Of a stretch of 60,271 nucleotides of DNA, positions 5,246-41,904 are shown piece by piece; position 1 is the stretch's first letter; the number at the start of each line of letters is the position of its first letter. The position numbers and the translations under genes were made by a program. The stretch lies in contig JACPZB010000066.1 of assembly GCA_016195725.1 (NCBI GenBank), positions 1 to 60,271 of the forward strand, read 5' to 3'. The notes beneath the pieces are model-generated. The model saw nothing but the letters and a program-made list of their open reading frames with translations, was not told the origin of the DNA and did no database searches. The DNA comes from Deltaproteobacteria bacterium (GTDB taxonomy: Bacteria > Desulfobacterota > GWC2-55-46 > UBA9637).

Positions 5246-5321
5246 TGGTGGAGCTGAGGGGGATCGAACCCCTGACCTCAAGACTGCCAGCCTTGCGCTC
5301 TCCCAACTGAGCTACAGCCCC
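5246..5321 (-). tRNA. tRNA-Ala (anticodon GGC), CCA encoded
   Basis: The reverse complement is GGGGCTGTAGCTCAGTTGGGAGAGCGCAAGGCTGGCAGTCTTGAGGTCAGGGGTTCGATCCCCCTCAGCTCCACCA. It folds as a cloverleaf with a G3:U70 pair, anticodon loop CTGGCAG and a GTTCGATCC T-arm. Confidence 0.95.
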
Positions 5322-7215: not shown

Positions 7216-7300
7216 TGGCGGAGGGTGAGGGACTCGAACCCCCAAGGGCGTTAGCCCGCTGGTTTTCAAGACCAGTGACTTACCATTAGCCTAACCCTCC
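7216..7300 (-). tRNA. tRNA-Ser (anticodon UGA), long variable arm, CCA encoded
   Basis: The reverse complement is GGAGGGTTAGGCTAATGGTAAGTCACTGGTCTTGAAAACCAGCGGGCTAACGCCCTTGGGGGTTCGAGTCCCTCACCCTCCGCCA. The anticodon loop is CTTGAAA and the variable arm has a stem. Confidence 0.9.
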
Positions 7301-7455: not shown

Positions 7456-7881
7456 ATGAAGACCGCATTTGTAAGACAGCAAGACAAAGCAAAGTGGTAT
7501 ATTGTGGATGCAAAAGATAAAATACTTGGCAGGCTGGCTACACGTATAGCCACTATGCTTAAGGGAAAACATAAACCCACCTACACTCCTTTTATGGATT
7601 CAGGAGATTTTGTCGTGGTGGTAAATGCTGAAAAGATAGCGGTAACAGGCAAAAAACTTACCGACAAAATATATTATCATCATACCATGTATCCAGAAGG
7701 GCTGAGGACTGAGGCCATGGGAAAACGTTTGGCCAGAAAACCGGAAGATGTAATACATCATGCAGTGTGGGGTATGCTTCCAAAGGGCAGCCTTGGAAGG
7801 GATATGATAAAAAAGCTTAAGGTCTACACTGGTGAAAACCATCCGCATCAGGCACAAAGGCCGGAAAAACTTGCAATTTAA
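7456..7881 (+). CDS. rplM: 50S ribosomal protein L13
   Basis: 141-aa ORF with [16 protein letters not shown] and GKHKPTYTP signatures, followed by rpsI as in the conserved operon. Confidence 0.95.
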
Positions 7882-7896
7882 AAGGAGCGTTCATTT

Positions 7897-8289
7897 ATGG
7901 CAGTAACAACTTACCAGGCAGTAGGCAGAAGAAAGACATCGGTAGCACGGGTTCGACTGATAAAGGGCAGTGGCAAGATAACAATTAATGACAAGCCAAT
8001 AGATAACTACTTTGGCAGCGAAACCTTAAAGATGATTATTAAGCAGCCTCTGGGGGCAGTAAAGAGTTTGAATCAATTTGATGTCTATGCAAATGTATAC
8101 GGCGGCGGCAGTGCCGGTCAGGCAGGCGCAATCAGACACGGCATCACCAGGGCGCTTTTAGAGGTAAATTCCGACATGAGGCCGACCTTGAAAAAGGCAG
8201 GCTTTGTTACCAGAGACCCAAGGATGAAAGAAAGGAAGAAATACGGACAGAAAGGTGCAAGAAAGCGCTTCCAGTTCTCAAAGAGATAA
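7897..8289 (+). CDS. rpsI: 30S ribosomal protein S9
   Basis: 130-aa ORF with [29 protein letters not shown] and the C-terminal [17 protein letters not shown]. Confidence 0.95.
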
Positions 8290-8315
8290 GATTGAATTTG
8301 ATACCAATTACAGAA

Positions 8316-8349
8316 GGGGAAGGTCTCTTGGCCTTCCCTTTTTTATTTT
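8316..8349 (+). terminator. Intrinsic terminator after rpsI
   Basis: GGGAAGG-loop-CCTTCCC stem followed by TTTTTTATTTT. Confidence 0.7.
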
Positions 8350-8369
8350 CATCTAACTGAGGAAGCATT

Positions 8370-9410
8370 ATGATAAAAACAGCAATACTTGGCGGAAGCG
8401 GTTATACAGGATTAGAACTCCTGAGGATTTTAGAAAGCCACCCTAAAGCAGAGGTTATTGCCGTAACCTCACGGCAATACAAAGGATGCAAGCTTGAAGA
8501 GGTATTCCCAAGTCTGAACGGATTTTCAAAACTCAAATTTGGAGACCCTGCAAATTTTAATGTGCTTTCAAAGGCAGATCTCATATTTTCAGCCCTGCCT
8601 CATCATACTTCCATGGAGATAGTGCCTGAGCTATTAAAGAAGGGCAAAAAGGTTATAGACTTAAGCGCAGATTTTCGGTTGAAGGATGCAAAGACATATG
8701 AAGCATGGTATGGAAAGCACATAGCCAAAAATTTATTAAAAAAAGCCGCATACGGCCTGCCAGAGCTTCACAGAGGCAAGATAAAAAATGCGGAGTTGGT
8801 TGCAAATCCAGGGTGTTATCCAACAGGCGCCATCCTTGGCCTCGCGCCTGCAATAGCCGCAGGCATCATAGATGTCAACACGATTGTCATAGACTCAAAG
8901 AGCGGCGTATCAGGCGCTGGAAGGTCAGCTTCTCTGGATACATCATTTGCAGAGGTAAATGAAGGGTTCAAGGCATATAAGGTTGGCGAGCATCGCCATA
9001 CCCCTGAGATTGAACAGGAGATTAGCCTCATTGCTGGAAAAATTATCACGGTAACATTCACACCACACCTCTTGTCTGTAAACAGGGGCATATTAAGCAC
9101 CATGTATGCGAGCTTAAACAGTAAAGGTGTAACTTACAGCAAGGCTGTTGACATCTACAAAAAATATTACAATAATGAATTCTTTATCCGCATGATGCCG
9201 GAAGATGTTTTCCCAAATACGGCCCAGGTAAAGGGCTCTAATTTTTGCGATATAGGATTAAAGATAGATAAGCGAACTGGCCGCTTAATTGTCATTACAG
9301 CAATTGACAATCTCGTAAAAGGCGCATCTGGCCAAGCTGTTCAGAATATGAATATTGTGTTTGGCCTTCCTGAAACAACAGGTCTTGGCACGCCCCCCTT
9401 ATCTATATAA
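8370..9410 (+). CDS. argC: N-acetyl-gamma-glutamyl-phosphate reductase
   Basis: 346-aa ORF with N-terminal ILGGSGYTGLELLRIL and the active-site region ANPGCYPTG. Confidence 0.9.
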   Translation: MIKTAILGGSGYTGLELLRILESHPKAEVIAVTSRQYKGCKLEEVFPSLNGFSKLKFGDPANFNVLSKADLIFSALPHHTSMEIVPELLKKGKKVIDLSADFRLKDAKTYEAWYGKHIAKNLLKKAAYGLPELHRGKIKNAELVANPGCYPTGAILGLAPAIAAGIIDVNTIVIDSKSGVSGAGRSASLDTSFAEVNEGFKAYKVGEHRHTPEIEQEISLIAGKIITVTFTPHLLSVNRGILSTMYASLNSKGVTYSKAVDIYKKYYNNEFFIRMMPEDVFPNTAQVKGSNFCDIGLKIDKRTGRLIVITAIDNLVKGASGQAVQNMNIVFGLPETTGLGTPPLSI

Positions 9411-26378: not shown

Positions 26379-27094
26379 GAGATAACGCCGGCCCCACGTT
26401 TATGTGTTTTTAATCCAGACAAACCTGAAATTTACACAATCTACTTTATACCATCAGGGCCTTCTTCTGTATTCTGAATGCTGACTCATGGATTCCATTA
26501 TTTCCACCCCTTTTATTAGCTGCAGGTTCATGGGTGTTTCTTTCCATTCCTCTAAGTACGACTTCCTCGAAAGATGTTTATTTTATAATCACCGATGGTC
26601 AAAAATCAGGCAGCTTTTTCGATGAGCAACATATTTTCAGTGTAATATGTTGATTTTTTACTGATAGTGAACGATGGCATTAAATTTGCATTGTTTTATG
26701 TTGGAAATTACTTGATTCACTTTTGAGAGTTGCAGACCGGTTGCGAGTCAAGACATAAACATTTTTGGGAATTTTTTCTTTGTCCGGGACCGGCCTTGCG
26801 ATGTTAGCAAGCATGGGATTGTTTTGCTGTTGTTTGTAAAGGGACAACAGCACCTATAGTCAGCGACATAAATTTGTAGTCTGCCGATCCCGTTTAAATA
26901 CATAACGGGACAAATTTATCGGTGATTTTAAAATACGTCCATAAATGGGCACACTATATCTACTTATTTTTATCGTTCACTATAAAGGGCAGTGCAACAA
27001 AATTTAGATCGTTTGCCCTTGCTCCACTCTTTTCACTACAGCAGATATGGCGAGGGTGATGGGGTAAAATGTAACGATTGTTTTTTCGTCTGTA

Positions 27095-27130
27095 TTAACC
27101 CAAAAAATGCATTTGCATTTTTTGGCAAAA
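27095..27130. repeat. 36-nt hairpin element, copy 1 (TTAACCCAAAAAATGC-ATTT-GCATTTTTTGGCAAAA)
   Basis: 11-bp perfect stem CCAAAAAATGC/GCATTTTTTGG with a 4-nt loop. It is near-identical to 31037-31072. Confidence 0.85.
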
Positions 27131-27215
27131 GGTGATTAGTCCAGTACGACGGTTACAACGCAGTAATCGTGAAAGTGTTTGAATAAGGTAATGACGCCTT
27201 ATTCCCTATAACGCG

Positions 27216-27235
27216 GAAAATGCGGATGCATTTTC
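27216..27235. promoter_or_regulatory. Palindrome GAAAATGC-GGAT-GCATTTTC, a candidate operator
   Basis: 8-bp perfect inverted repeat sharing the AAAATGC/GCATTTT core with the hairpin element. It lies about 215 nt upstream of the HAO-like gene. Confidence 0.4.
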
Positions 27236-27448
27236 TGACAAATGCAAGTCACTGACAGATATCTCTCGGACATCTTTTGAGAGCGCTTATGTCAGGAAGC
27301 TACTCAGAAGCAGGCTTCTGCTCTGATCTTGCTTTTGCCCCGAAAAATATTAATTCGGGTTTAAAGGGAATGGGCGTTTTTTTTTGCCGACATACTGTCT
27401 GTGTGAAGAGGTTTTTTCATATTGATGTTGTGTATAGAAAGGAGTTGT

Positions 27449-28777
27449 ATGAAGAAGAATTTTACGTACGCGCTTATCTTTTTGCTCTTATGCGCTGTTT
27501 ACTCCAGCAGTTTTGCCGCGGATGAAGGGCTGCCGCTTCCACTGAAGAGTTATCATAAAAGGAATACGTCTGTTACCGAGAAGTGGAAGGAGGCGGGGAG
27601 GGGGTACTTCAATCCATACGAGTATAAACCTCCCAAGGTTGAGGGAGCCGGTACTGACTGCTTAAAGTGCCACAAGGTTTTGACTCCTACGGTGGTAAAG
27701 GACTGGGAGGACAGCAAGCATTTCAAGAAAGACGTGGGCTGCACGAATTGTCATAACGACCATTCAAACCTCATCATGCCGACTCCTGATACTTGCGGAA
27801 AGTGCCATGCCGCGAGGACAATGCAGCACAGGGGAGGGAAACATGGTGTAGGCTGGAAAAATGTAATTGCGGCTGGAGGCAAAGGGGGCGCGGCAGGCCG
27901 ATACCTTGCCCAGTATTCCGAGATGCAGGAAGGCGGCTGTGGGACATGTCACAGCATTGAGACTAAATGCGATTCATGCCATACAAGACACGCCTTCAAA
28001 CCGAAAGAGGCGAGGGAGCCCGATGCGTGCGGCACATGTCACATGGGTCCCGACCATGCCCAAATTGAGTATTACGAATCCTCAAAACACGGTGTCATCT
28101 TTAAGGTTGAAGGCAAAGGTTTTGAAGACGGCGGCAGGGCGCCGACATGTGTGACATGCCACATGTCCGGAGGCAATCATGATGTGAGCCAGGGCATTTC
28201 CATAGGCGGGGCATCTCAAGGCAAATTCATCGGCCAGACAAACAGCGGGAACAGTCAGAGAAAAAACCCCAACGGGATATCGATGAATGAGATTACAGGC
28301 GAGGATTTCACGCGGGAGAGGGACAAGATGCTGCGTGTTTGCATTAACTGCCACTCAAAGAGATTTGCGGAGCATAAGCTTTCAATCGCGGACGGTGTAA
28401 AAATAGCGAGTGATGCCGTTGCCGGCGAGGCTATAAAGGAGATTGTTGACCTCTATAACTCAGGGCTTCTTAACCCGATGCCGGATGACCGGCCTGAGAA
28501 CCCATTCGCTGGTTTTAACTTAGTGCTTACATCGCACCAGCTTTATGAGCAGACATCCGGCATAGAGGCGTTGTACTTTGAGATGTACAAGTTTGACCTT
28601 GTGCATGCATGGAAGGGCGCTTATCACTTCAGTCCTGACTGGACACACTGGTTCGGCAACGCGCCGATGAAATTGAAACTGGCAAGGATAAAAGACATGG
28701 CAAACCAGTTAAGACGCCTTAATAAATTGGAGCTCAAACTCAACGTCAAACCGGAAAAGGTTGAGTTCGGAGAATAG
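27449..28777 (+). CDS. Octahaem cytochrome c of the hydroxylamine oxidoreductase (HAO) family, probably without the cross-link tyrosine
   Basis: Signal peptide MKKNFTYALIFLLLCAVYSSSFA follows a GGAG site. There are 8 CXXCH motifs. Collinear blocks resemble Nitrosomonas HAO (YKPP; MPTPDTCGKCH; CGTCHSIETKCDSCHTRHAF..REPDACGTCHMGPDH..YESSKHG; APTCVTCHM; CINCHSKRFA). Confidence 0.85.
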   Translation: MKKNFTYALIFLLLCAVYSSSFAADEGLPLPLKSYHKRNTSVTEKWKEAGRGYFNPYEYKPPKVEGAGTDCLKCHKVLTPTVVKDWEDSKHFKKDVGCTNCHNDHSNLIMPTPDTCGKCHAARTMQHRGGKHGVGWKNVIAAGGKGGAAGRYLAQYSEMQEGGCGTCHSIETKCDSCHTRHAFKPKEAREPDACGTCHMGPDHAQIEYYESSKHGVIFKVEGKGFEDGGRAPTCVTCHMSGGNHDVSQGISIGGASQGKFIGQTNSGNSQRKNPNGISMNEITGEDFTRERDKMLRVCINCHSKRFAEHKLSIADGVKIASDAVAGEAIKEIVDLYNSGLLNPMPDDRPENPFAGFNLVLTSHQLYEQTSGIEALYFEMYKFDLVHAWKGAYHFSPDWTHWFGNAPMKLKLARIKDMANQLRRLNKLELKLNVKPEKVEFGE

Positions 28778-28782
28778 CGGCG

Positions 28783-29406
28783 ATGAGACATTTATTGCCA
28801 TTCATGATTATATTGATAACGCTCTCATCCGCGGGGGCGGCTGTGCTGCCGCGCGCCGGCGCATGCGGAAGCTGTCATGTTGATAACTTCCGTGAATGGG
28901 AATCTTCCGCGCATTCACGCTCAATACTGGGGGAGCGATTTCGCAAAGCGCTGAAAGAGCATCTCCTCAGGGATGGCACGGACGAGGGTAGTTTTTGTTT
29001 CAGATGCCATGCGCCTGAGTTGATTATCTCCGGGGATGTCTTTGAAGCTACGAAGATGGCGCTGAACGGGAAGGCGCCGGCCGAAGGGGTTACATGCGTT
29101 GCCTGCCACAGTGTGGAATCCGTTAAAGGGGGGAAGCCTGTATACGACCCAGGCGATTTTCCCGGCTATCACAGGGTGAAAGACCTGAGGTCTCTTGACA
29201 GGGCCGGGCTCTGCACGACCTGCCACAGCGTTTATAAGCAGAAGAATATTGTCAGGGAAGAGAAGAGCGGTTTTTTAATGCGCAATGTTTCATGGGTCAC
29301 GGAATTATTCCACGCAAGAAGAAGCAAGAAGAGCGACCACGGTTTTTCTGACACCATTATTGTGGAAAAGGAAGGGGAAGGATGTCCGGGCGTCAAGAGA
29401 GATTAA
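28783..29406 (+). CDS. Membrane-anchored or secreted tetrahaem cytochrome c (NapC/NrfH- or c554-like)
   Basis: N-terminal hydrophobic helix and 4 CXXCH motifs (CGSCH, CFRCH, CVACH, CTTCH). The first motif context, CGSCHVDNFREWESSAHS, resembles NrfH/c554-type haem 1. Confidence 0.75.
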   Translation: MRHLLPFMIILITLSSAGAAVLPRAGACGSCHVDNFREWESSAHSRSILGERFRKALKEHLLRDGTDEGSFCFRCHAPELIISGDVFEATKMALNGKAPAEGVTCVACHSVESVKGGKPVYDPGDFPGYHRVKDLRSLDRAGLCTTCHSVYKQKNIVREEKSGFLMRNVSWVTELFHARRSKKSDHGFSDTIIVEKEGEGCPGVKRD

Positions 29407-31040
29407 ATATTATCTTATTGCGTGGACTATCAGCGTTAGGGGCATTTCTTTTACTGATATCAGCCGCTATGGCTCGGTCCGGCAATTTCAGTGAGGGAGA
29501 AGGGAGCAGGGAGTGCAGGAACTGCCATCAGGAAAATAAGAGACCGGACAGATATGATGCCGTCAGACCCTGGCTCAAGAGCCGGCATGCCGAGGCAGGT
29601 GTTGCGTGTGTCGACTGTCATCTTAAAAAAGAGATAGAGAAAGAGGATTTTTATAAGGCCGTTACCGCAACGACGAAGGAGAGCGCCCACGCCTTTATGG
29701 TGGAGAGGCCGGCCGCGAAAGAGACAAAGATGTATTTTGTCGGCGTATGCGGCGGGTGCCACAAAGAAAGGCTTGACGAGTTCAATGCGAGTGTGCACGG
29801 CATGGCAAATCAGAAAGGGAAAAGCGTAAGCTGTATTGACTGTCACGATCCGCATAGTGTCTCTGCGGCATCCAGCAGGGATTCACGGCTGTACAAGGGG
29901 AATGACCTGAAAACCTGCGGGAGATGCCACAAGGATATGCTGGACTCATACATGAGCACATTTCACGGCAAACAGTTTGTCCTCGGCAATACCCTTGTGC
30001 CGACATGCGTATACTGTCACATGGGGCATGAATTGCCGCCGGATGCGCCGGGATCGGCCATCAATGCTAAGAATGTAGGCAATATCTGCGCGGGCTGCCA
30101 CGGCGAGGCAGTCGCGCTGGGACCGGATGCGGACGAGATGATGATACACTCTCTCAGCAGGGATTCTACAAGAAAGGTCATCCACTTCAGGGACCCTGTC
30201 TCGTTCGGGCCGTTCTCCATCGCCTCTGTAATAAACTCATCGTATATCGCGATGATCATAGGGGTCGTAGGTTTCTTTACCCTTATGTCAACCCGTGACT
30301 TTGTAAAAAAGACAAGGATGGCGCATACCCACAAACATGATAACGGCAGCGAAGAAAAGACGATAAAGCGTTTTTCTCTCGCATGGAGGTTTCAGCACTT
30401 TTTCTGGGCAATCTCATTTATCGTTCTTGCTGCAACAGGCCTGTCCCTCAAGTTTCCGGATTCGATATTCTCGAGGGCTATCGTGTGGGTTGCAGGAGGA
30501 CCCGCGATGAGGTCTGTTGTCCACCGCATCGCAGCGGTTGTTTTTATAGGAACGGCGCTGGCGCATCTGAGCCCGTATATTTTGTTCCGCAGGCTGCCTG
30601 GAAAGGTCATTCTTGCAAAAAAAGATTTCCTCGACGCACTGCTGCATCTCAGCTACTTGTTCGACAGAACCGAAAATATGCCGCTCATGGGGAGATATAC
30701 GTGGTATCAGAAGCTGGAATATTGGGCCACGGTTGTGGGCGCCTGCATAGTCATATCAACCGGTTTCCTTATGTGGGGCTTTGCCCCCCTGATCAAGAAG
30801 ATACCCATTTCGCTCTTATATTACGCGCAGATGATGCATGGGTGGGAGGCCATACTCGCGGTTCTCGTTATCTTTGTGCAGCATATATATCAGACTGTTT
30901 TAAACCCGCTTGTTTTCCCGATGGATTTCTCATGGCTTACCGGAAGGACGAAATACGCGGTGATGGAACATGAACATCCCCTTGAGTTGATGGAGATTGA
31001 GTCTAAGAAGGGAGGCGGAGATCGTGAAGGCGCATCTTAA
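29382..31040 (+). CDS. Fusion of a periplasmic heptahaem cytochrome c domain with a FdnI/HydC-type dihaem cytochrome b membrane domain (CbcL-like)
   Basis: 7 CXXCH motifs in residues 45-240, then about 5 TM helices. Conserved His sit in TM segments (RFQHFFW; HRIAAVVF; MHGWEAILAVLVIFVQH), as in formate dehydrogenase gamma or NiFe-hydrogenase cytochrome b. Confidence 0.75.
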   Translation: MSGRQERLNIILLRGLSALGAFLLLISAAMARSGNFSEGEGSRECRNCHQENKRPDRYDAVRPWLKSRHAEAGVACVDCHLKKEIEKEDFYKAVTATTKESAHAFMVERPAAKETKMYFVGVCGGCHKERLDEFNASVHGMANQKGKSVSCIDCHDPHSVSAASSRDSRLYKGNDLKTCGRCHKDMLDSYMSTFHGKQFVLGNTLVPTCVYCHMGHELPPDAPGSAINAKNVGNICAGCHGEAVALGPDADEMMIHSLSRDSTRKVIHFRDPVSFGPFSIASVINSSYIAMIIGVVGFFTLMSTRDFVKKTRMAHTHKHDNGSEEKTIKRFSLAWRFQHFFWAISFIVLAATGLSLKFPDSIFSRAIVWVAGGPAMRSVVHRIAAVVFIGTALAHLSPYILFRRLPGKVILAKKDFLDALLHLSYLFDRTENMPLMGRYTWYQKLEYWATVVGACIVISTGFLMWGFAPLIKKIPISLLYYAQMMHGWEAILAVLVIFVQHIYQTVLNPLVFPMDFSWLTGRTKYAVMEHEHPLELMEIESKKGGGDREGAS

Positions 31041-31572
31041 CCCAAAAAATGCGGTTGCATTTTTTGGCAAAACAGTGCTGATAATCGCGGCGATTCTATT
31101 GACATTGCCTGTTCATACATGGAGCGATTCCTGCGACGAGTGCCATCTTCACAGGTCGCTTGTCAGGGAATCTGACGGGGAATCTGTAACAGATGCGGAC
31201 GCGCCGGGAACGCTTGCCGGATTCCATATTATGGAATTCAAAGGCGAGGAACGGACATCGGCATGCCGCAGGTGTCATGGAAATTTGCAGGAGTCCAATA
31301 AACTTCCGCGTTCGGAGGCATGCCTCAAGTGCCATACGAGGGGCAAGGCAGCGCAGGGGGATCGGCGCATGGTATTCCATGCGGAAAAGAATCACTGGCC
31401 TCTGGAAAAGGTGTCGTGCGCTGACTGTCACAGGGCGCACATAAAGGGCAACCCTGCCGTAAAGTTTCTTACGACAAATGTGGTCAGCGTATGCAGCGGA
31501 TGCCATGAAAAAACTTTTAATTTGAAAGAAACTGCGTTGAAGGAGAGCGCTTTGCCTGATTCAGGCCAGTAG
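31024..31572 (+). CDS. Pentahaem cytochrome c
   Basis: 5 CXXCH motifs (CDECH, CRRCH, CLKCH, CADCH, CSGCH). The GTG at 31024 lies 8 nt after GGAGG, and the alternative GTG at 31075 lies after the hairpin element. Hydrophobic signal LIIAAILLTLPVHTWS. Confidence 0.7.
   Translation: MKAHLNPKNAVAFFGKTVLIIAAILLTLPVHTWSDSCDECHLHRSLVRESDGESVTDADAPGTLAGFHIMEFKGEERTSACRRCHGNLQESNKLPRSEACLKCHTRGKAAQGDRRMVFHAEKNHWPLEKVSCADCHRAHIKGNPAVKFLTTNVVSVCSGCHEKTFNLKETALKESALPDSGQ
31037..31072. repeat. 36-nt hairpin element, copy 2 (TTAACCCAAAAAATGC-GGTT-GCATTTTTTGGCAAAA)
   Basis: 34 of 36 nt are identical to copy 1, and both differences are in the loop. It starts at the stop codon of the preceding gene. Confidence 0.85.
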
Positions 31573-31595: not shown

Positions 31596-32909
31596 ATGTC
31601 TTCAATTGAGCAGATAGGGGAAATCAGGGTTGCAATCGATACCGTATGGGTAATACTCTCGGCCGTTCTTGTTTTCGTAATGAACGCCGGTTTTGGAATG
31701 CTTGAGTCGGGCCTGTGCAGGTCAAAAAATACCGTGAATATATTTTCAAAGAACATAGTCATCTTTGCCATAGCAGGCCTTACTTTCTGGCTTGTCGGAT
31801 TCGGCCTCATGTTCAGCGATGGCTCGTTTTTCATCGGCTCGACAGGATGGATGCTCACGGGTGAGGATAACAGTCCCGCCGTGGCCGGGCAGTATTCCGG
31901 TATTTTCAGCTCGCTGGGCTGGACTGCCGTTCCCCTCTACGCAAAGTTTCTTTTCCAGATGGTATTTGTAGCCGCCTCGGCGCACATTGTGTCCGGCGCG
32001 GTGTCAGAGAGGATAAAGTATTTTTCATTTATTGCCTTTTCCGTTGTGCTGGTCGCCATCATCTATCCCATAACAGGTCACTGGATATGGGGCGGAGGAT
32101 GGCTGGATTCGATGGGTTTTGTTGATTTCGCCGGCTCCACGGTGGTCCATTCGGTAGGAGGATGGGCAGCGCTTACCGGCACGATCGTGCTTGGCCCGCG
32201 TATGAACAAGTTTACCAGGGACGGGAGAATAAACCCCATTCCCGGCCATAACCAGACAATGGCTGCGCTTGGTATGTTTCTGCTCTGGCTCGGATGGTTC
32301 GGTTTCAACGCCGGAAGTGCAATGGCCGCAAAACCGGAGACGATAGCGCTGGTTGCCGTCAATACCACACTGGCGGCCGCAGCCGGCGTTTTAAGCGCGA
32401 CAATCGTATCAGAGATACTCATAGGCAAACCGGACCTGAGCATGATGGTTAATGGCGCGCTTGCCGGCCTTGTCGCAATTACTGCCGGCTGTTCAGCGGT
32501 AAACATAGGCGGCGCTGTGATAACAGGCCTTGTGGCCGGCATACTTGTGGTCTACTTCATAATATTCCTTGACAGGCGCAGGATAGACGACCCTGTAGGG
32601 GCAATACCCGTGCATCTGATAAACGGCATCTGGGGCACTGCGGCCGTGGGGCTGCTTGACCGGGAGGCGGGGCTCTTCTATGGAGGCGGCATATCGCTTT
32701 TTATTACGCAGCTTATCGGGATTGCGGCTGTCGGCGTTTTTGTCGGCGGAGGCACGTATGTTCTCTGGCGCCTTATCGGTCTTGTTATGGGACTGCGGGT
32801 AAGCCAGGAAGAAGAGTATGTCGGACTCGACATAAGCGAGCACGGCATGGAGGCATATCCTGATGCATCCGGACCCAGGGGTTTATACGGAAAACCGGGA
32901 AAGTTCTAA
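31596..32909 (+). CDS. amt: Ammonium transporter (Amt family)
   Basis: 437-aa ORF with about 11 TM helices. It has AGFGMLESGLCRSKN, FAGSTVVHSVGGWAAL and WGTAAVGL signatures. AGGAGG precedes the ATG, 23 nt after the pentahaem gene. Confidence 0.9.
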   Translation: MSSIEQIGEIRVAIDTVWVILSAVLVFVMNAGFGMLESGLCRSKNTVNIFSKNIVIFAIAGLTFWLVGFGLMFSDGSFFIGSTGWMLTGEDNSPAVAGQYSGIFSSLGWTAVPLYAKFLFQMVFVAASAHIVSGAVSERIKYFSFIAFSVVLVAIIYPITGHWIWGGGWLDSMGFVDFAGSTVVHSVGGWAALTGTIVLGPRMNKFTRDGRINPIPGHNQTMAALGMFLLWLGWFGFNAGSAMAAKPETIALVAVNTTLAAAAGVLSATIVSEILIGKPDLSMMVNGALAGLVAITAGCSAVNIGGAVITGLVAGILVVYFIIFLDRRRIDDPVGAIPVHLINGIWGTAAVGLLDREAGLFYGGGISLFITQLIGIAAVGVFVGGGTYVLWRLIGLVMGLRVSQEEEYVGLDISEHGMEAYPDASGPRGLYGKPGKF

Positions 32910-32930
32910 CCGCGGCGGGAGGCGGAAAGC

Positions 32931-32957
32931 GGGGACAGATTTGAAATCTGTCCCCAA
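32931..32957 (+). repeat. 27-nt hairpin repeat, copy 1 (GGGGACAGATTTGAAATCTGTCCCCAA)
   Basis: 10-bp perfect stem with no T-tract, between amt and the next gene. The second copy at 35155-35181 has 3 mismatches. Confidence 0.7.
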
Positions 32958-32972
32958 CTATCGGAGGACGAA

Positions 32973-33650
32973 ATGGCCTGGCTAATATTCTTTGTTTTTT
33001 GGATTGTCTTTCTCTGGCTCTATAAATACAGCGAGCGGCACAAGCAGCACAGGATTCTGGAGATGCAGAAGGACAGGCATTCGGACTACGGCCAGATGAA
33101 AAAAGAGTTCGACGAGAGCATGGAGCTTTTCAATACCACTGCTGATTTCAAAGCCAGGCTTGCGCATATTGATAAGGCCATAGAATGTCTTAAGTGGATG
33201 GAAGAGATGATCCCCGGCAAAGAACATTCCTCTGAAAAGCTTCCGCAGATAATGTCGCTCAAGCAGGCGCTGATATATTCCGGCATAAAGGCGCAGTTCG
33301 AAAACGCAATGAATAACGCGAAAGAGGGAAAGCTCCTCGTGGCAAAGGTCAATCATGCAACCGCCGCTCAATCCATCCTCAACAAAGGGCTGAGCCTCGG
33401 CATTGACAGAAAGACCCTTGCGAGGGAGATTGAAGAGGCCAACAGTTTTATCAACAGGATTCAATACGATGAATACTTTTCAAAGGCAAAAAAAGAAGAG
33501 GAAAAAGGGAATATAAAGACAGCCATAGATCAGTATCAGGTGGCGCTTTACTTTTTAAAAATGACCAGCATGGGGGGCGAAGACCATGAATCGCTGGTAA
33601 AAGAGATGGAAGGGAGGATACAGAAACTTTATGAAAGAGGCATTGTTTAA
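32973..33650 (+). CDS. Hypothetical membrane-anchored helical protein
   Basis: 225-aa ORF with an N-terminal TM helix (WLIFFVFWIVFLWLY); the rest is predicted helical. GGAGG precedes the ATG. Confidence 0.55.
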   Translation: MAWLIFFVFWIVFLWLYKYSERHKQHRILEMQKDRHSDYGQMKKEFDESMELFNTTADFKARLAHIDKAIECLKWMEEMIPGKEHSSEKLPQIMSLKQALIYSGIKAQFENAMNNAKEGKLLVAKVNHATAAQSILNKGLSLGIDRKTLAREIEEANSFINRIQYDEYFSKAKKEEEKGNIKTAIDQYQVALYFLKMTSMGGEDHESLVKEMEGRIQKLYERGIV

Positions 33651-33670
33651 AGCGATCACAGGAGGTAATT

Positions 33671-35113
33671 ATGGAAACATCTGACATGCAGGAAAGGATG
33701 AAAGGTTTCGGGGAGGCCATAAAAAAAACGGAATTTCCGTGGAAGGCAGTCCTGTTTGTTTTGATTACAGGGTTTATTGTCGTAGGCGGCCTGTTCGGTC
33801 TCCTGGAAATCAATGAGGCCGGCTACATTACGGTCAAGCAGTCCCTGTTGACAGGCAAGGTTACAATCGTTTCAGAGCCAGGTATGTTCTGTCAGTGTTT
33901 CGGAACGATAACAAAATACAGGGAGGCGGGAACCTTCAAATTCGCTCAGACCGAAGAAGCAGCCGGAGGCAAGGAAAAGGCGAGGCCTAAAAAGGGCAGG
34001 GGGAGCGACCCGGAGGTATCCGATGAGATAGAGGTGCGATTCAACGATGGTTCCATTGGGTGGATATCCGGAATGGCGCTTTTCGATCTTCCCAAGGATG
34101 ATGAAAAACTCGGGCTTCTCCATATGAAATTCAGAGGCTTCAGGAATCTCATTGAGGCCGGAATAATGCCCACTATTAAAGAGTCGGTTGTGCTCACGGC
34201 CGCGCTCATGAGCTCCGGAGAGTCATATACGACAAAAAGGGCCATATTCTCGGAGTGGTCAAGGGATCAGATTGAGAAGGGCACATATATGACCGAGGAA
34301 TTGGTAAAAGAGGAAAAGGACCAGAGGACCGGAGATGTTACCAGAAAGAGCTTTGTCAAGATAAAGACCGATAACAGCAGGCTCCTGAGAAATGAAAACC
34401 CCCTTGAGAGGTACGGCATAAAGTTCAGACAGTTCCAGGTAACGGAGATCCGCTATGAGCCTGAGACGGAAAATCTTATAAAGACAAAAATGGAGGCGAT
34501 GCAGAAAACCATCGCAGCCAAGATTTCCGCAGAGAGGGCAATACAGGAAAGGCTTGCGGCAGAAGAGCTCGGCAAAAAGAACGTTACAGTCGCCGAATAT
34601 GAGGCCATGATAAAGAAGAAGAAATCTGAGGTCGAGGCAGAAGAGGCAAAGGCAGTGGCCGTCATTGAGGCGAATAAGAAACTTGAGGTGGGAAAACTGG
34701 AGAGGGAAAAGGAGACCAATGCCGCCTCAAAAAAAGTTGAGATTGAAAAACTTGAGAAGGCCAGGGCGGTTATAGAGGCGCAGAAGGCGCTTGACGTGGC
34801 GAGAATAAACGCACAGAGCGCTGAAAGCAAGAAAAGGGCGGACGTCCTCGAAGGGGAAGGGCTTGCTGAAAAGAAAAAGCTTATTTACAAAGCCGATGGA
34901 GCGTTACAGCAGAAACTTGATGCTTATGTCAATGTTATGACAGTTCTCGCAAAGGAGCTTGGCAAACAGAAGTGGGTGCCTGATATCACCATGAACGGCG
35001 GGCCGCATGGAACCGCGGACGGGAACGCGGCAATGGGCTTTATGAATCTGTGGATGATGAAGACCGCCAAAGAGCTTGGAGTTGAACTGGTGAATGAGAA
35101 AAAGAATCAGTAA
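33671..35113 (+). CDS. Membrane-anchored SPFH/flotillin-like protein with long coiled coil (tentative)
   Basis: 480-aa ORF with an N-terminal TM helix, then a band-7-like beta region (GYITVKQSLLTGKVTIVSEPGMF) and an A/E/K-rich coiled coil of about 150 aa. Confidence 0.45.
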   Translation: METSDMQERMKGFGEAIKKTEFPWKAVLFVLITGFIVVGGLFGLLEINEAGYITVKQSLLTGKVTIVSEPGMFCQCFGTITKYREAGTFKFAQTEEAAGGKEKARPKKGRGSDPEVSDEIEVRFNDGSIGWISGMALFDLPKDDEKLGLLHMKFRGFRNLIEAGIMPTIKESVVLTAALMSSGESYTTKRAIFSEWSRDQIEKGTYMTEELVKEEKDQRTGDVTRKSFVKIKTDNSRLLRNENPLERYGIKFRQFQVTEIRYEPETENLIKTKMEAMQKTIAAKISAERAIQERLAAEELGKKNVTVAEYEAMIKKKKSEVEAEEAKAVAVIEANKKLEVGKLEREKETNAASKKVEIEKLEKARAVIEAQKALDVARINAQSAESKKRADVLEGEGLAEKKKLIYKADGALQQKLDAYVNVMTVLAKELGKQKWVPDITMNGGPHGTADGNAAMGFMNLWMMKTAKELGVELVNEKKNQ

Positions 35114-38437: not shown

Positions 38438-40300
38438 CTATTCCTTTTCTATCACCATCAACGTCTCATCAGGATTTACAGAATCTCCAACCTTGACATA
38501 TATCTTTTTTACAATGCCGTCCATGGGTGTATGCACCTCGTTTTCCATTTTCATTGCCTCAACCGTGAGGAGCGTATCTCCGGCAGAAACCTTATTGCCC
38601 TCGGATACTTTTATGCTTGTAACCTTTCCCGGGATAGGCGCTGTAACATCCCCCTTCTTTGTTGCTTTCGGCCTTACTGAGGTGGTTGTCGGCTTTGCCT
38701 CTATCTCGCCTGCTGTAGCTGGAATAACCTCTGTAAGAGACTCCAGCATAACCTCTTCGAGACGCTCGTCTATCTTTAAGAAGAACGGCCTCTTTCCTTC
38801 AACCTTGTGGCCTGTGCCTGCCACCTTCACCCTGTAGGATTCGCCATGAACAGTGATAATAAATTCACTCGGCGCAAGGGATGGTATGTGAGGCACCTGG
38901 GGGGGCTGAGTTTCTTTAACCTCTTCCAGCAGCTCTGGTTCAAGCTTGCCGCTCTCCCTCTGTTCAAAATATTCCAGAGCCACATTGGGAAAAAGCGCAT
39001 AGGATAAGATATCATCGGTACTCTTTGCCCTCCCCCCAAGCTCCCTTGTAAGTTTGTCAAGTTCAGGCTCAAGCAAATCCGCAGGCCGACAGGTAATTGG
39101 TTCCTCATCACCTATCGCCTTCTTTTGCACCTTTTTCTCTATCTTGCCAGGCGGGGTGCCGTAAAGGCCTTTAAAATAATTTCTTGTCTCAGTGGTTATA
39201 ACCTTATACCTCTCTCCACTAAGGATATTCAATGTGGCCTGCGTTCCGACAACCTGGCTGGCTGGCGTAACAAGCGGCGGATATCCCATATCCTTTCTTA
39301 CCCTCGGAATCTCCTCTAAAACCTCATCCATTTTTTCAATGGCATTCTGTTCCTTTAATTGGACTGCCAGATTTGAGATCATACCGCCTGGTATCTGGAC
39401 AACGAGCGTCTTTGTATTTATGCCGGTATATTCACTTTCAAATCTTTTGTATTTCTTGCGGAGATTTCTAAAATATTCTGCTATGTCTGCCAAAAGTGCA
39501 ATGTCAAGGCCTGTATCATATACTGTGCCTTGCAGTGCCTCCACAAGGCTTTCCGTGGGCGGCTGCGCTGTGCCAGACGCAATGGATGAGATGGCGGTGT
39601 CAATCATCTCCGCGCCTGCCTCTATTGCCTTGAGATAGCTCATGGATGCAAGGCCGCTGGAATCGTGGGTGTGGATATGTATGGGAAGTTTTATTTTCTC
39701 CTTCAACATCTTTACAAGGTCATAGGCGGCATACGGCGTGAGAAGCCCTGCCATATCTTTTATACAGATAGTATCAGCGCCCATGTCCTCCAGTTGGAGT
39801 GCCATCTCCGCAAAACCCTCATGCGTATGCACAGGACTTGTTGTGTAGCATACGCAGGCCTCTACAATAGCCTTGTTTGATTTTACCGCCTTAACAGCAA
39901 CCTCAACATTTCTTATGTCATTCAGGGCGTCAAATATGCGGAATATGTCCATGCCGTTTTTTACAGAACGTTCAACAAACTTCTTCACCACATCGTCTGA
40001 GTAATGGCGATAGCCCACAAGGTTCTGTCCCCGAAGCAGCATCTGGAGCTTTGTCTTGGGCAGGGCCTTTTTTAAATCCCGAAGCCTCTGCCACGGGTCT
40101 TCTCTCAAGAAACGAAGGCATGTGTCAAATGTTGCGCCGCCCCAAACTTCAAGACTAAAGTAACCCACCTTGTCCAGCTTTTCTGCAATAGGCAGCATAT
40201 CCTCTGTCCGCATCCTTGTTGCAAGAAGAGACTGATGGGCATCACGCAATACCGTATCGGTGATTTTCACTCTCTGGTTTTTGGTTTTGTTTTTGGGCAT
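38438..40300 (-). CDS. pycB: Pyruvate carboxylase subunit B (carboxyltransferase plus biotinyl carrier); oxaloacetate decarboxylase alpha-like
   Basis: 620-aa ORF with ITDTVLRDAHQSL, HTHDSSGLA and a C-terminal biotinyl domain with EAMKMENE. It is adjacent to the biotin carboxylase subunit. Confidence 0.85.
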   Translation of the reverse strand: MPKNKTKNQRVKITDTVLRDAHQSLLATRMRTEDMLPIAEKLDKVGYFSLEVWGGATFDTCLRFLREDPWQRLRDLKKALPKTKLQMLLRGQNLVGYRHYSDDVVKKFVERSVKNGMDIFRIFDALNDIRNVEVAVKAVKSNKAIVEACVCYTTSPVHTHEGFAEMALQLEDMGADTICIKDMAGLLTPYAAYDLVKMLKEKIKLPIHIHTHDSSGLASMSYLKAIEAGAEMIDTAISSIASGTAQPPTESLVEALQGTVYDTGLDIALLADIAEYFRNLRKKYKRFESEYTGINTKTLVVQIPGGMISNLAVQLKEQNAIEKMDEVLEEIPRVRKDMGYPPLVTPASQVVGTQATLNILSGERYKVITTETRNYFKGLYGTPPGKIEKKVQKKAIGDEEPITCRPADLLEPELDKLTRELGGRAKSTDDILSYALFPNVALEYFEQRESGKLEPELLEEVKETQPPQVPHIPSLAPSEFIITVHGESYRVKVAGTGHKVEGKRPFFLKIDERLEEVMLESLTEVIPATAGEIEAKPTTTSVRPKATKKGDVTAPIPGKVTSIKVSEGNKVSAGDTLLTVEAMKMENEVHTPMDGIVKKIYVKVGDSVNPDETLMVIEKE

Positions 40301-40353
40301 GGTCTCTCCCGCAGGTGGTTTTTCGATTGTCGAATTTTGATATTCTATTTAAT

Positions 40354-40381
40354 TCGTAAATCGTAAATCGCAAATCGTAAT
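40354..40381. repeat. Tandem heptamer repeat (TCGTAAA TCGTAAA TCGCAAA TCGTAAT)
   Basis: Read directly between pycA and pycB. Confidence 0.85.
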
Positions 40382-40387
40382 TATCCT

Positions 40388-41806
40388 TCAAAACCTATGA
40401 TATGCCGCTATTGCCGCAGAAATGGCCGCCACCTTGTCAATCGGGTCTTCAAACTCGGCATAATTCAACAATTCCGGCTTTCTGTCTATATATCCAGTAT
40501 CAAAGTTGCCGTTTATAAAATCAGGGTCGTTCATTATCTTTCTTAAAAAGGGAATTGTGGTTTTTACCCCGCGGATTACAAACTCATCCAAAGACCTGTG
40601 CATCCTGCTGACAACTTCATTCCAGTCTCTTCCGCGTACCACCAGCTTTGCAACCATGGAGTCATAAAAACCAGGTATGACATAATCCTTATAAATAGCG
40701 CCGTCTATCCTTACACCGATGCCGCCCGGCGAGTAATATGCCGTAACCCTTCCACTATTGGGTCTAAAACTATTCTTAGGGTCTTCTGCACAAATGCGGC
40801 ATTCCATTGCAAAACCCCTTGCCTTAACCTTATCCTGCCCCATGTTGAGAGGCTTGCCTGCAGCAATCTCTATCTGTTTTTTTACAAGGTCAATGCCTGT
40901 AACTTCTTCTGTTATGGTATGCTCAACCTGTATCCTCGTATTCATCTCGAGAAAATAAAAATTCTTTTTGTCATCAACAAGAAACTCTACTGTCCCTGCA
41001 TTTACATAGTTTGCGGCCTTGGCAGCCTTTACAGCGGCCATGCCCATCTTATCCCTTAAATCTGCATCAAGGATGAGAGAAGGGGAAATCTCTATAATCT
41101 TTTGATGCCTCCTCTGGATTGAGCAGTCCCTTTCTCCAAGATGAATGACATTTCCATGCTTGTCTGCCAGAATCTGGAATTCAATATGATGAGGCCTCTC
41201 AATATATTTTTCTAAAAACACCTCTGATATTCCAAATGCTGCCCTTGATTCAGACTGGGCAATATCCATGTTTTTAACAAGCTCCTTTTCACCCCTTGCA
41301 ACCCTCAGCCCTCTGCCTCCTCCTCCCCCTGATGCCTTTATCATAACCGGATAGCCAATCTCCTTCGCAAACACCGCTGCCTCATCTGTATTCTTGAGGC
41401 TGCCTTCACTCCCTGGAACAATAGGCACACCTGCCTTTTTCATCATCTCCCTTGCCCTTACCTTGTCGCCCATATCAGCAATAGCCTGGCTGGTTGGGCC
41501 GATAAAGGTTATGCCCTTTTTTTCGCATAACTCTGCAAAGCTGGGCTTTTCTGAAAGAAAGCCGTAGCCAGGGTGTATAGCATCCACGCCAACTTTCAGC
41601 GCAAGGTCGACTATTCTATGGATGTTCAGATAGCCCTCAATAGGACCAGGACCGACAAGATAAGACTCGTCAGCCTTTTTAACATAAAGAGATGTGGCGT
41701 CAGCCTCTGAATAGATTGCAACGGTTGCTATGCCAAGCTCCTTGCATGCCCTGATTAGCCGTGTGGCTATCTCGCCTCTGTTTGCTACAAGCACCTTCTT
41801 AAACAT
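40388..41806 (-). CDS. pycA: Pyruvate carboxylase subunit A (biotin carboxylase)
   Basis: MFKKVLVANRGEIA N-terminus and an ATP-grasp domain (GGGGRGLRV; EMNTRIQVEH). The ORF is open to the TTG at 41824. Confidence 0.9.
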   Translation of the reverse strand: MFKKVLVANRGEIATRLIRACKELGIATVAIYSEADATSLYVKKADESYLVGPGPIEGYLNIHRIVDLALKVGVDAIHPGYGFLSEKPSFAELCEKKGITFIGPTSQAIADMGDKVRAREMMKKAGVPIVPGSEGSLKNTDEAAVFAKEIGYPVMIKASGGGGGRGLRVARGEKELVKNMDIAQSESRAAFGISEVFLEKYIERPHHIEFQILADKHGNVIHLGERDCSIQRRHQKIIEISPSLILDADLRDKMGMAAVKAAKAANYVNAGTVEFLVDDKKNFYFLEMNTRIQVEHTITEEVTGIDLVKKQIEIAAGKPLNMGQDKVKARGFAMECRICAEDPKNSFRPNSGRVTAYYSPGGIGVRIDGAIYKDYVIPGFYDSMVAKLVVRGRDWNEVVSRMHRSLDEFVIRGVKTTIPFLRKIMNDPDFINGNFDTGYIDRKPELLNYAEFEDPIDKVAAISAAIAAYHRF

Positions 41807-41904
41807 AATATTGCTTTGGGTCAAGGCGACCGTGTCGCCGTTTTTACGCCAATATAGTTGGTTCGCTCCGTAATTGTTGCATAAGAATTCCCTTATAGAA
41901 AATA

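Follow-up and report, generated by a model that had tools for sequence, protein, structure and literature searches.

The gene at positions 27449–28777 (plus strand) of the window, by which the whole analyzed stretch of 60,271 nucleotides is meant, encodes a periplasmic octahaem cytochrome c of the HAO family, in which a histidine, His400, occupies the column of the haem-cross-linking tyrosine of the oxidative HAO, HOX and HDH enzymes. By analogy with the characterized tyrosine-less members of the family, this protein is probably (at a rough probability of 0.6) a quinol-fed octahaem reductase of a nitrogen oxyanion or intermediate, the ammonium product of which would be taken up by an Amt transporter. 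Whether an HAO-family enzyme works oxidatively or reductively is judged from its sequence by the presence of the cross-linking tyrosine, the accepted marker, and a correct call therefore decides whether the MAG is read as that of a nitrifier-like oxidizer or as that of a nitrite/hydroxylamine reducer. Judged by this marker, the protein would be called a reducer.

The 442-aa product was 100% identical to P0270, the NCBI entry MBI3398838.1. In the Pfam profile search it matched PF13447 with 112.7 bits against a cut-off of 21.9, and its N-terminal hydrophobic segment carried a Sec signal peptide (MKKNFTYALIFLLLCAVYSSSFA|AD). Eight CxxCH motifs were found (C71, C98, C116, C164, C174, C194, C234 and C298), all of them invariant in 52 relatives and aligned, in the order of the family, with the motifs of NeHAO, HOX and kustc0458. 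When the protein was compared with the PDB by phmmer, HAO-family chains were the sole matches (6t5e, 4n4j, 6h5l, 6hif and 4fas, E 7e-46 to 1e-35); these chains were also at the top when the family profile was used (E 8e-73 to 9e-57), kustc0458 being the best (E 8e-73). The identity to the solved HAO-family structures was 24–28%, and the protein belongs to a separate clade. The score against the NCBIfam hydrazine dehydrogenase equivalog, NF052343, was 133.1 bits, far from its cut-off of 900, and the protein was not assigned to the hydrazine dehydrogenases.

The AlphaFold2 monomer reached a global pLDDT of 79.7, with values below 55 in the haem core (residues ~176–245) and high values in the C-terminal helices 371–392 and 396–431. 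Every Foldseek match of this model at E <= 0.001 was an HAO-family entry. The TM-scores to the HAOs of the PDB were 0.33–0.41, only about 0.4 because the model was built without haems. Since the haem core was poorly modeled, the monomer was used only to confirm the family of the fold and the presence of the C-terminal helices, and for no geometry. The protein is presumably a homotrimer assembled on these helices.

His400 is encoded by the codon CAC at 28646–28648 (27449+399*3=28646, plus strand), and the segment G390–M407 around it (28616–28669, plus strand), which includes the invariant residues H393, D397, H400, W401 and G403, reads in frame as GAYHFSPDWTHWFGNAPM. A preliminary description of this DNA had aligned the region 28631–28663, which encodes SPDWTHWFGNA, with a Nitrosomonas segment, and had placed the histidine of 28646–28648 where the cross-linking tyrosine sits. 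The quoted segment was accurate, as PDB 4fas carries GLAHVNPGGWTYTEGWGPM, and the placement was borne out by pairwise phmmer, by the tyrosine-type relatives and by MAFFT. In the pairwise phmmer alignments, H400 stood opposite the tyrosine of NeHAO (wtY), of HDH (atY) and of KsHOX and the 6t5e chain (qtY); in kustc0458 its counterpart was the first tryptophan of the SWWWG motif. Tyrosine-type relatives such as P0253 (FHVNPDYAYWYGWA) aligned without gaps with the His-type members (YHMNPDYAHWYGWA). Furthermore, the multiple alignment that had been proposed as a check, run by MAFFT L-INS-i with the solved HAO/HOX/HDH chains and kustc0458, united the tyrosines of NeHAO, KsHOX and HDH, the tryptophan of kustc0458 and H400 in one column.

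The family-profile alignment also set the histidine opposite the tyrosine of NeHAO and displaced KsHOX by two residues. The resulting placement of the cross-linking tyrosine of KsHOX and 6t5e on column 402, where tyrosine is the family consensus and this protein has phenylalanine, was put down to a spurious local match at YGN and rejected, since it needed four indel positions against two for the H400 column, and since the gapless tyrosine-type relatives and MAFFT fix the tyrosine at the latter. Another cross-linking tyrosine at position 392, 398 or 402 (Tyr, Trp and Phe in this protein) was likewise discarded, as these positions exchange tyrosine with phenylalanine or tryptophan among the relatives. 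The tyrosine of GAYH (Y392), which the preliminary description had named as the residue that could overturn its reading, was excluded as the cross-linker: position 392 is Tyr in 41 and Phe in 11 clade members, and Ala in all four solved-structure types. Besides Y392, no tyrosine is present between residues 381 and 420. Where the P460-type HAO, HOX and HDH enzymes have tyrosine in the cross-link column, this protein has His400. Because this histidine is invariant in the column and no tyrosine lies within reach, a P460 tyrosine–haem cross-link should be impossible here.

The histidine was conserved in 52 of the 52 clade members (39–89% identity), the mean column identity being 32%, so that its presence in this column is not due to chance. 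In the wider HAO family (n = 234) the same column held His in 161 sequences, Asn in 14, Tyr in 12 and Trp in 9. Other key residues were retained as well. H393, which is also histidine in all four solved-structure types, is probably a haem axial ligand. In NeHAO, the haem-4 binding motif C164-G-T-C-H168 (27938–27952, plus strand) had as its counterpart CTMCH, the motif of the catalytic haem. The clade-invariant D202-H203 (28052–28057, plus strand) aligned with the Asp-His of NeHAO (VDH), KsHOX (IDH) and kustc0458 (PDH); the NeHAO counterpart of this pair is the distal catalytic pair. Nine conserved histidines were found outside the CxxCH motifs, namely H91 (His or Met), H105, H132, H181, H203, H214, H244, H393 and H400. 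By the haem count and the NeHAO structure, we assume that seven axial histidines and one catalytic histidine are required. The idea that His400 is a missing axial ligand was dropped on this count of nine against seven plus one, which suggests that H400 is surplus to the axial-ligand need, the alignment being fuzzy around H132.

The view in the preliminary description that the lack of the tyrosine indicates a reductive-type enzyme agrees with the published rule, by which all characterized tyrosine-less HAOs are reductases (PMC8042395). In the work of Ferousi et al. (2021), a tyrosine-less HAO reduced nitrite, NO and NH2OH and oxidized neither NH2OH nor N2H4 (PMC8042395), and that article summarizes four epsilon-Haos, characterized as recombinant proteins, as nitrite/NH2OH reductases in vitro. 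A 2025 paper described "His at the key site" as the common reductive state. Desulfobacterota and other prokaryotes outside the anammox group have 'His-type' HAO-like proteins, which, according to PMC12758564, carry histidine at the key site and are predicted to be reductive, the class being founded there on phylogeny and ancestral reconstruction alone. The protein of the window is a member of this already-described class. The His-type makes up the majority of the HAO family sampled (161/234), yet no characterized enzyme with histidine in the cross-link column was identified in the literature found. The papers on the octahaem protein of orange Beggiatoaceae make no mention of the cross-link site, and a preprint on cable bacteria holds no residue information.

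The HAO-family gene was followed on the same strand by closely packed or overlapping genes, a layout that counts in favor of the reductase reading. Five nucleotides past its stop codon starts the gene of a tetrahaem cytochrome c554-like protein (28783–29406; 207 aa, signal peptide, four CxxCH; PF13435, 39.7 bits against a cut-off of 20.8). The next gene (29382–31040) encodes a 552-aa fusion of a periplasmic domain with seven CxxCH and a cytochrome b membrane domain (PF03264 and PF01292, both above their cut-offs). The haem domain of this fusion is NapC/NirT- and NrfH-like, and the membrane domain has about five transmembrane helices of the b561/FdnI-gamma type; the matches to TIGR01583 and to NrfH-like models were all below the cut-offs. 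The fusion is presumed to be a quinol/quinone-reactive anchor. A pentahaem c3-like cytochrome with an N-terminal hydrophobic segment (30997–31572; 191 aa from an uncertain TTG start) comes next and, 23 nt downstream of it, an Amt-family ammonium transporter of 437 aa (31596–32909; PF00909, E 6.6e-119; TIGR00836, 406.2 bits against a cut-off of 343.3), which scored below the cut-offs of both the AmtB equivalog and the 'marine subtype' models and has no adjacent glnK. Two further syntenic genes, also on the plus strand (32973–35113), encode a protein of 225 aa with weak MIT-like similarity and an SPFH/Band-7 protein of 480 aa. A promoter and terminator scan and an Rfam search around the operon gave nothing above background. 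The 60-kb window contains no nap, nar, nrf, hcp or nir gene that would supply or consume substrates, which counts against the reductase reading, and no amo, hzs or further nitrogen-cycle gene.

The adjacency of the Amt gene, also remarked on in the preliminary description, proved to be real and conserved, being found in the window and at four other loci. These four (L001, L003, L004 and L006) belong to MAGs of Deltaproteobacteria and Gammaproteobacteria and one metagenome contig, with 68–89% identity, and carry the same module of HAO, c554-like, multihaem/cytochrome b, c3-like and Amt genes. The MIT-like and Band-7 genes followed in the same order in L004 and L006, and in L001 the Band-7 gene stood directly after Amt. 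The clade of the protein comprised MAGs of Deltaproteobacteria, Gammaproteobacteria and Methanoperedens. The gene of the Methanoperedens homologue (46% identical) directly follows a hybrid-cluster (Prismane/Hcp) gene, as in the reverse-HURM proposal (PMC2628731), and this neighbor is counted as support. A 58%-identical homologue had cytochrome b and c genes alongside and no Amt gene, and this counts against the reductase reading. Overall, the gene context supports a nitrogen chemistry for the protein, and the Amt linkage fits an ammonium product. The Amt channel could equally carry ammonium into the periplasm or serve as a sensor, either of which would speak against the preferred reading.

By analogy with the characterized tyrosine-less HAOs, we infer in which direction the enzyme works, on which substrate and to which product, and by what path its electrons arrive. 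A five-coordinate haem 4, together with Asp202 and His203, would reduce nitrite, NO or hydroxylamine. Electrons from the quinol pool would enter through the 7-haem/cytochrome b membrane protein, which is presumably co-transcribed, and may reach the enzyme via the pentahaem cytochrome and the c554-like tetrahaem one, and the whole chain would resemble a 'reverse HURM' module. In the reverse-HURM proposal for Nautilia profundicola, electrons come from quinol via a NapC/NrfH/cM552-type cytochrome (PMC2628731), a donor that the NapC/NirT-like multihaem domain of the window resembles. The c554-like and NapC/NirT-type genes that follow hao recall HURM; the architecture differs by the seven haems fused to cytochrome b and by the extra pentahaem cytochrome. 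The product would most likely be ammonium, which the presumably co-transcribed Amt would import after its formation in the periplasm.

The module was also compared with the characterized systems. Like the protein of the window, epsilon-Hao lacks the tyrosine, and it reduces nitrite and NH2OH in vitro, as summarized in PMC8042395. Nevertheless, the epsilon-Hao module has a tetrahaem NrfH-type anchor in place of the 7-haem/cytochrome b fusion and is linked to nap, whereas the 60-kb window has no nap operon. An Amt linkage of epsilon-Hao or reverse HURM did not come up in the papers found, and the passages of PMC12758564 that were consulted do not mention an Amt-linked operon for the His-type class. 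The oxidative enzymes (N. europaea 4fas/1fgj; Kuenenia 4n4j and 6hif; Brocadia 6t5e) share with the protein the fold, including the C-terminal helices, the haem count with its eight-CxxCH pattern, and the Asp-His pair, and in ammonia oxidizers a c554-like gene likewise adjoins hao. In contrast, they contain one extra residue shortly before the site, and the cross-linking tyrosine instead of the histidine. HAOr (kustc0458) of Kuenenia stuttgartiensis (6h5l) is also an octahaem protein of the HAO fold without tyrosine in the cross-link column. The two proteins, ~26% identical, aligned without gaps from the conserved histidine to the RRL motif and have in common the Asp-His pair and the pattern D-x-x-[H/W]-W-x-G-x-A-P-M, the site being Trp in kustc0458 and His here. 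HAOr is an anammoxosome enzyme with a dihaem (His/Met) partner, Kustc0457. Unlike HAOr, the protein of the window has c554-like tetrahaem, 7-haem/cytochrome b and pentahaem partners followed by Amt; with histidine at the site and a tetrahaem c554-like gene, not a dihaem one, adjacent, it was not assigned to the HAOr type.

This likeness to HAOr raises the alternative that the enzyme is reductive and tyrosine-less but makes NO, as a one-electron nitrite reductase, or detoxifies NO or hydroxylamine, with a regulatory or unrelated Amt. The in vivo product of kustc0458 is proposed to be NO and not ammonium (PMC8042395), which counts against the ammonium product; kustc0458 was moreover the best PDB match of the family profile, with a gap-free alignment around the site and the common G-x-A-P-M, and Hcp, the neighbor in Methanoperedens, has been tied to hydroxylamine metabolism in the literature. 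An Amt gene after the module at five loci, the window included, is hard to explain in this way, and the kustc0457-type dihaem partner and the tryptophan at the site are both missing. Moreover, HAOr itself forms ammonium when the reductant is strong (PMC8042395), as do the epsilon-Haos. We regard an NO former or detoxifier as unlikely. A role outside nitrogen metabolism, in an electron-transfer, extracellular or sulfur-compound reductase complex with Amt, MIT-like and Band-7 genes as chance neighbors, would accord with the window being devoid of other nitrogen-cycle genes and with the 58%-identical homologue that lacks Amt. Multihaem cytochromes are promiscuous in vitro, a point against the preferred reading, and the HAO, NrfA, OTR and OcwA relatives show catalytic promiscuity and diverse roles (PMC9250108). 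However, the invariance of the Asp-His pair, the Amt synteny retained across bacterial classes and the Hcp gene adjoining the archaeal homologue make such a role quite improbable.

An oxidative enzyme despite the missing tyrosine would use Amt to bring in ammonium/ammonia and pass, for example, hydroxylamine electrons to the quinone pool, as in forward HURM. The order of hao, c554-like and membrane quinone-reactive cytochrome genes does recall the HAO-c554-cM552 of ammonia oxidizers (PMC2628731), and the Amt linkage is also compatible with substrate import. Nevertheless, tyrosine-less enzymes show no or negligible oxidation of NH2OH and N2H4 (PMC8042395), amo and hzs are absent from the window, and the score of 133 bits against the HDH equivalog cut-off of 900 points the same way, so that oxidation is very unlikely. 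Even less credence is given to His400 as the sixth iron ligand of the neighboring subunit's haem 4, in a purely electron-transferring cytochrome with eight bis-His haems and no catalytic site. Its invariance and its apparent surplus over seven axial and one catalytic histidine would suit such a ligand, but in the solved structures the Tyr or Trp of this column lies at the haem edge and not above the iron (PMC8042395; bioRxiv 10.64898/2026.07.28.741245), and an invariant Asp-His pair would be needless without a catalytic site.

The preferred reading of a tyrosine-less reductase has a more far-reaching version, which is put forward only tentatively as a speculation. The invariant His400 might be a selected catalytic element at the edge of the neighbor's haem 4 and define a distinct His-type HAO class which, with its own quinol-oxidizing cytochrome chain and a dedicated Amt, would form a periplasmic module for assimilating nitrite or hydroxylamine to ammonium in NrfA-less bacteria of vents and groundwater. 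His400 could then donate a hydrogen bond, relay protons or tune the haem potential and, at the extreme, might form a new covalent histidine–haem link. The wider significance of finding a His-type HAO-like protein is modest, the type being common and already described; the conserved private cytochrome chain with Amt is a concrete, testable candidate for a system by which bacteria of sediments, vents and groundwater might produce ammonium without NrfA. Additionally, the deposited record of the protein is annotated merely as "cytochrome c3 family protein", and a likely nitrogen-cycle enzyme is therefore under-described there.

The forward strand carries an open reading frame at 27422/27449-28777 that encodes 442 aa when counted from the ATG at 27449, which is also the start used in the 100% identical public record MBI3398838.1. 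The product has a Sec-type signal at its N-terminus (…SSSFA/AD) and eight CxxCH motifs, and it was matched by Pfam PF13447 with 112.7 bits (cut-off 21.9). When the PDB was searched with phmmer, only HAO-family chains were matched (Brocadia HOX 6t5e, Kuenenia HOX 4n4j, kustc0458 6h5l, HDH 6hif and Nitrosomonas HAO 4fas/1fgj/6m0p), with a weak match to IhOCC 4qo5. In a family-profile search the HAO-family chains also ranked at the top, and other multihaem cytochromes matched far more weakly. The AlphaFold2 model (pLDDT 79.7) retrieved HAO-family structures only at E <= 0.001, with TM-scores of about 0.4 and identities of 24-28% to the HAO, HOX, HDH and kustc0458 entries; being haem-free and poor in the haem core, it served for fold recognition only. 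Judged by its eight motifs, its Pfam match and its PDB matches, the protein falls within the HAO family, an identity missed by the standard annotation of the record, 'MAG: cytochrome c3 family protein [Deltaproteobacteria bacterium]'. No NCBIfam model claimed it; the best match, the HDH equivalog, reached 133 bits, far short of its cut-off of 900.

The preliminary description had placed a histidine, encoded by the CAC codon at 28646-28648, where oxidative HAOs carry the tyrosine that is cross-linked to the catalytic haem, by comparison with a Nitrosomonas segment. The codon does encode His400, in the frame G390-A-Y-H-F-S-P-D-W-T-H400-W-F-G-N-A-P-M407, and the quoted segment was accurate, since PDB 4fas reads GLAHVNPGGWTYTEGWGPM. 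In pairwise phmmer alignments the partner of His400 was the Tyr in N. europaea HAO (NeHAO), HDH, Kuenenia HOX (KsHOX) and the 6t5e chain; in the Tyr-less Kuenenia reductase kustc0458 it was the first Trp of 'SWWWG'. With a profile made from 52 relatives the His-Tyr pairing was obtained again for NeHAO, but KsHOX and 6t5e came out displaced by two residues, so that their Tyr fell on column 402, where the family consensus has Tyr and this protein Phe. This conflict was settled by two further alignments. When 234 family sequences were aligned by HMM, the database relatives carrying Tyr sat without gaps in column 400, as in P0253, which has FHVNPDYAYWYGWA in the place where YHMNPDYAHWYGWA is found in His-type members. 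Furthermore, an independent MAFFT L-INS-i alignment of the C-terminal segments gave one column for His400, the kustc0458 Trp and the Tyr of each of NeHAO, KsHOX and HDH; just upstream of the site these three oxidative enzymes each have one inserted residue. The distances from His400 to the P-M and the I-K/Q motif that follow it were the same as in NeHAO, and no gap was needed to align the protein with kustc0458 between the conserved His393 and the RRL motif. What is published agrees with the kustc0458 Trp as the structural counterpart of the cross-link residue. These results confirm the observation, and it is practically certain that a His stands in place of the Tyr and that the cross-link is missing.

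A different tyrosine, for example the Y of GAYH, had been named as the one that could overturn this reading. Within the clade this residue, at position 392, was Y in 41 and F in 11 (wider set: Y149/F61/A15), and each of the four types of solved structure has Ala there. Position 398 (Y33/W16/H3) is Trp and position 402 (Y38/F12) is Phe in this protein, and residues 381-420 contain no Tyr besides Y392. Such free swapping with Phe excludes an obligatory phenol cross-linker; hence, there is no alternative cross-link Tyr.

His400 was invariant in 52/52 relatives (39-89% identity), as were H393, D397, W401 and G403, compared with a mean column identity of 32%; judging from this alignment, it is selected and not accidental. 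The set of 234 sequences combined the 120 closest with superfamily representatives taken at 50% identity; here the column held His in 161, Asn in 14, Tyr in 12, Trp in 9, Gln in 8, Leu in 6, Phe in 5 and Gly in 4. Nine non-motif histidines are conserved in the clade: H91 (His or Met), H105, H132, H181, H203, H214, H244, H393 and H400. D202-H203 is kept in this protein and aligns with the Asp-His pair of solved HAOs, which we take to be the catalytic distal pair, following the NeHAO literature. Seven haems with bis-His ligation account for seven axial ligands; if H203 is the catalytic His, His400 would be the sole conserved His with no assigned ligand role, a count that we infer from an alignment uncertain near H132. 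The alternative that this conserved His serves as a sixth haem ligand is less likely. The boldest reading, a separate His-type mechanism in which His400 itself takes part in catalysis or tunes the haem, has a low probability. H91 (27719-27721), the 'SKH' His after haem motif 1, was Met in 11 of the 52 relatives, which suggests that the ligation of one electron-transfer haem alternates between His/His and His/Met among members of the clade.

The HAO gene is followed on the forward strand, after a 5-nt gap, by that of a 207-aa tetrahaem c554-like cytochrome (PF13435, 39.7 bits vs cut-off 20.8). A gene overlapping the latter by 25 nt encodes a 552-aa fusion of seven CxxCH motifs (NapC/NirT-, NrfH-like) to a cytochrome b domain with about five TM helices (PF01292; FdnI-gamma-like). 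Next come a 191-aa pentahaem c3-like cytochrome and, 23 nt later, an Amt ammonium transporter (PF00909, E 6.6e-119; TIGR00836 above cut-off), then a 225-aa protein (weak MIT-like match, no NCBIfam match) and an SPFH/Band-7 protein, all on the same strand, the Amt to Band-7 genes spanning 31596-35113. The HAO gene thus shares its module with genes for Amt, for a membrane-bound cytochrome b/multihaem protein and for two multihaem cytochromes that are soluble or anchored. This module was found again in four other loci: L001 of a Deltaproteobacteria MAG (89% identity), L003 of a Gammaproteobacteria MAG (69%), which stops inside the Amt gene, L004 of an Acidiferrobacteraceae MAG of the 'HyVt' series (68%) and L006 on a 192-kb JGI metagenome contig (71%). 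Partial members of the 90% cluster of the L004 protein carry the label 'hydrothermal vent metagenome'. A Band-7 gene (~480 aa, SPFH) follows Amt in L001, L004 and L006, directly in L001 and after a gene of ~220 aa in the other two.

Oxidative HAOs are trimers in which a Tyr is cross-linked to haem 4 (P460) of the adjoining subunit (Ferousi et al., 2021, PMC8042395). The Tyr-less kustc0458/7 complex reduced nitrite to NO and, with methyl viologen, nitrite, NO and NH2OH to ammonium, and was unable to oxidise NH2OH or N2H4; four Tyr-less epsilon-Haos reduced nitrite and NH2OH with negligible oxidation (PMC8042395). A 2025 phylogenomic study assigns the reductive version to most non-anammox bacteria (PMC12758564), and metagenomic surveys routinely call environmental hao genes reductive from the missing Tyr (PMC8940962). 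The reading of the preliminary description, no Tyr and hence reductive type, thus follows an established pattern, as do its observations, and His at the key site is already published. The finding is correct and ordinary for the field, and adds an uncharacterised member to a His-type HAO group that is published yet biochemically unexplored.

The protein is an HAO-fold octahaem cytochrome, exported to the periplasm, that keeps the Asp-His pair and lacks the P460 Tyr, the defining feature of the oxidative enzymes. An oxidative role is less likely. A reductive N-oxide enzyme is the reading we favour, with a probability of roughly 0.6-0.65. It would act as a trimer and reduce nitrite, NO or hydroxylamine, receiving electrons from quinol through the cytochrome b/7-haem anchor and the small cytochromes, as in the 'reverse HURM' arrangement proposed for Nautilia (PMC2628731). 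The periplasmic product, for which ammonium would be the leading though still tentative candidate, could be imported by the dedicated Amt. The main rival keeps the same reductive chemistry and, by analogy with HAOr (kustc0458), would have NO as product or a role in detoxification. This protein is not a kustc0458 orthologue, because identity is ~26%, the site holds His and not Trp, and there is no dihaem partner. A function outside nitrogen metabolism is less likely for a protein encoded with Amt. Its invariant His and conserved HAO-cytochrome-Amt operon make it a testable candidate for an uncharacterised ammonium-linked module in NrfA-independent bacteria; some residual value also lies in correcting the public annotation.

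Outside the module the window holds housekeeping genes, with no nap, nar, nrf, nir, hcp, amo or hzs genes, and scans of it for promoters, terminators and Rfam families added nothing informative. Between a class I/II aminotransferase gene and the HAO start lie ~1.07 kb with no convincing gene (26379-27448), unusually long for this compact contig, with one weak promoter-like site (26907-26934) and no Rfam match. About 4-7 kb downstream of the module come biotin carboxylase and carboxyltransferase/biotin-carrier genes, of the two-subunit pyruvate- or oxaloacetate-carboxylase type (38438-41824, reverse strand); L001 again has a biotin carboxylase gene downstream (7813-9231), so synteny with this Deltaproteobacteria MAG reaches beyond the operon. 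Two further features have no connection with the HAO finding: an rve-type integrase-core ORF near the contig end (55802-56563, reverse strand), whose weak match of 28.5 bits falls short of the 32.6 required by Pfam, and a pair of tRNA genes close to the window start (5249-5321 and 7219-7300, both reverse strand).

More distant homologues were found in other settings. In L007 (449-4027), which has no Amt gene, the 58% identical P0020 (571 aa) is fused at its N-terminus to a monohaem cytochrome c and has a TM helix at its C-terminus; its gene comes next after those of cytochrome b and cytochrome b_C/c, a position that suggests coupling to a bc-type complex in place of the cytochrome b/7-haem anchor. 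In Candidatus Methanoperedens (L008, L009; 7031-10275) a 46% identical His-type homologue lies immediately downstream of an Hcp gene, a pairing that resembles the reverse-HURM proposal; the hybrid-cluster (Prismane/Hcp) gene encodes 625 aa, and the HAO homologue is a few kb from the mtr operon. P0053 and P0122 (750-790 aa size class) are tandem 'double HAO-like' proteins, with Gly in the cross-link column and no PDYxHW motif in the first half, and the canonical His-type 'AHVNPDY[A/T]HWYGNA' at the C-terminal end; P0057, of similar length, also has Gly in its first half. Asn marks a distinct long HAO-like subfamily (P0154, P0156, P0168, P0173, P0180-P0182 and P0206; ~630-710 aa) with a C-terminal HAO domain and the motif 'KGAYH[NQS]SPS[VI][AT]N...S'. 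Other minor states of the column were Gln, Leu and Phe.
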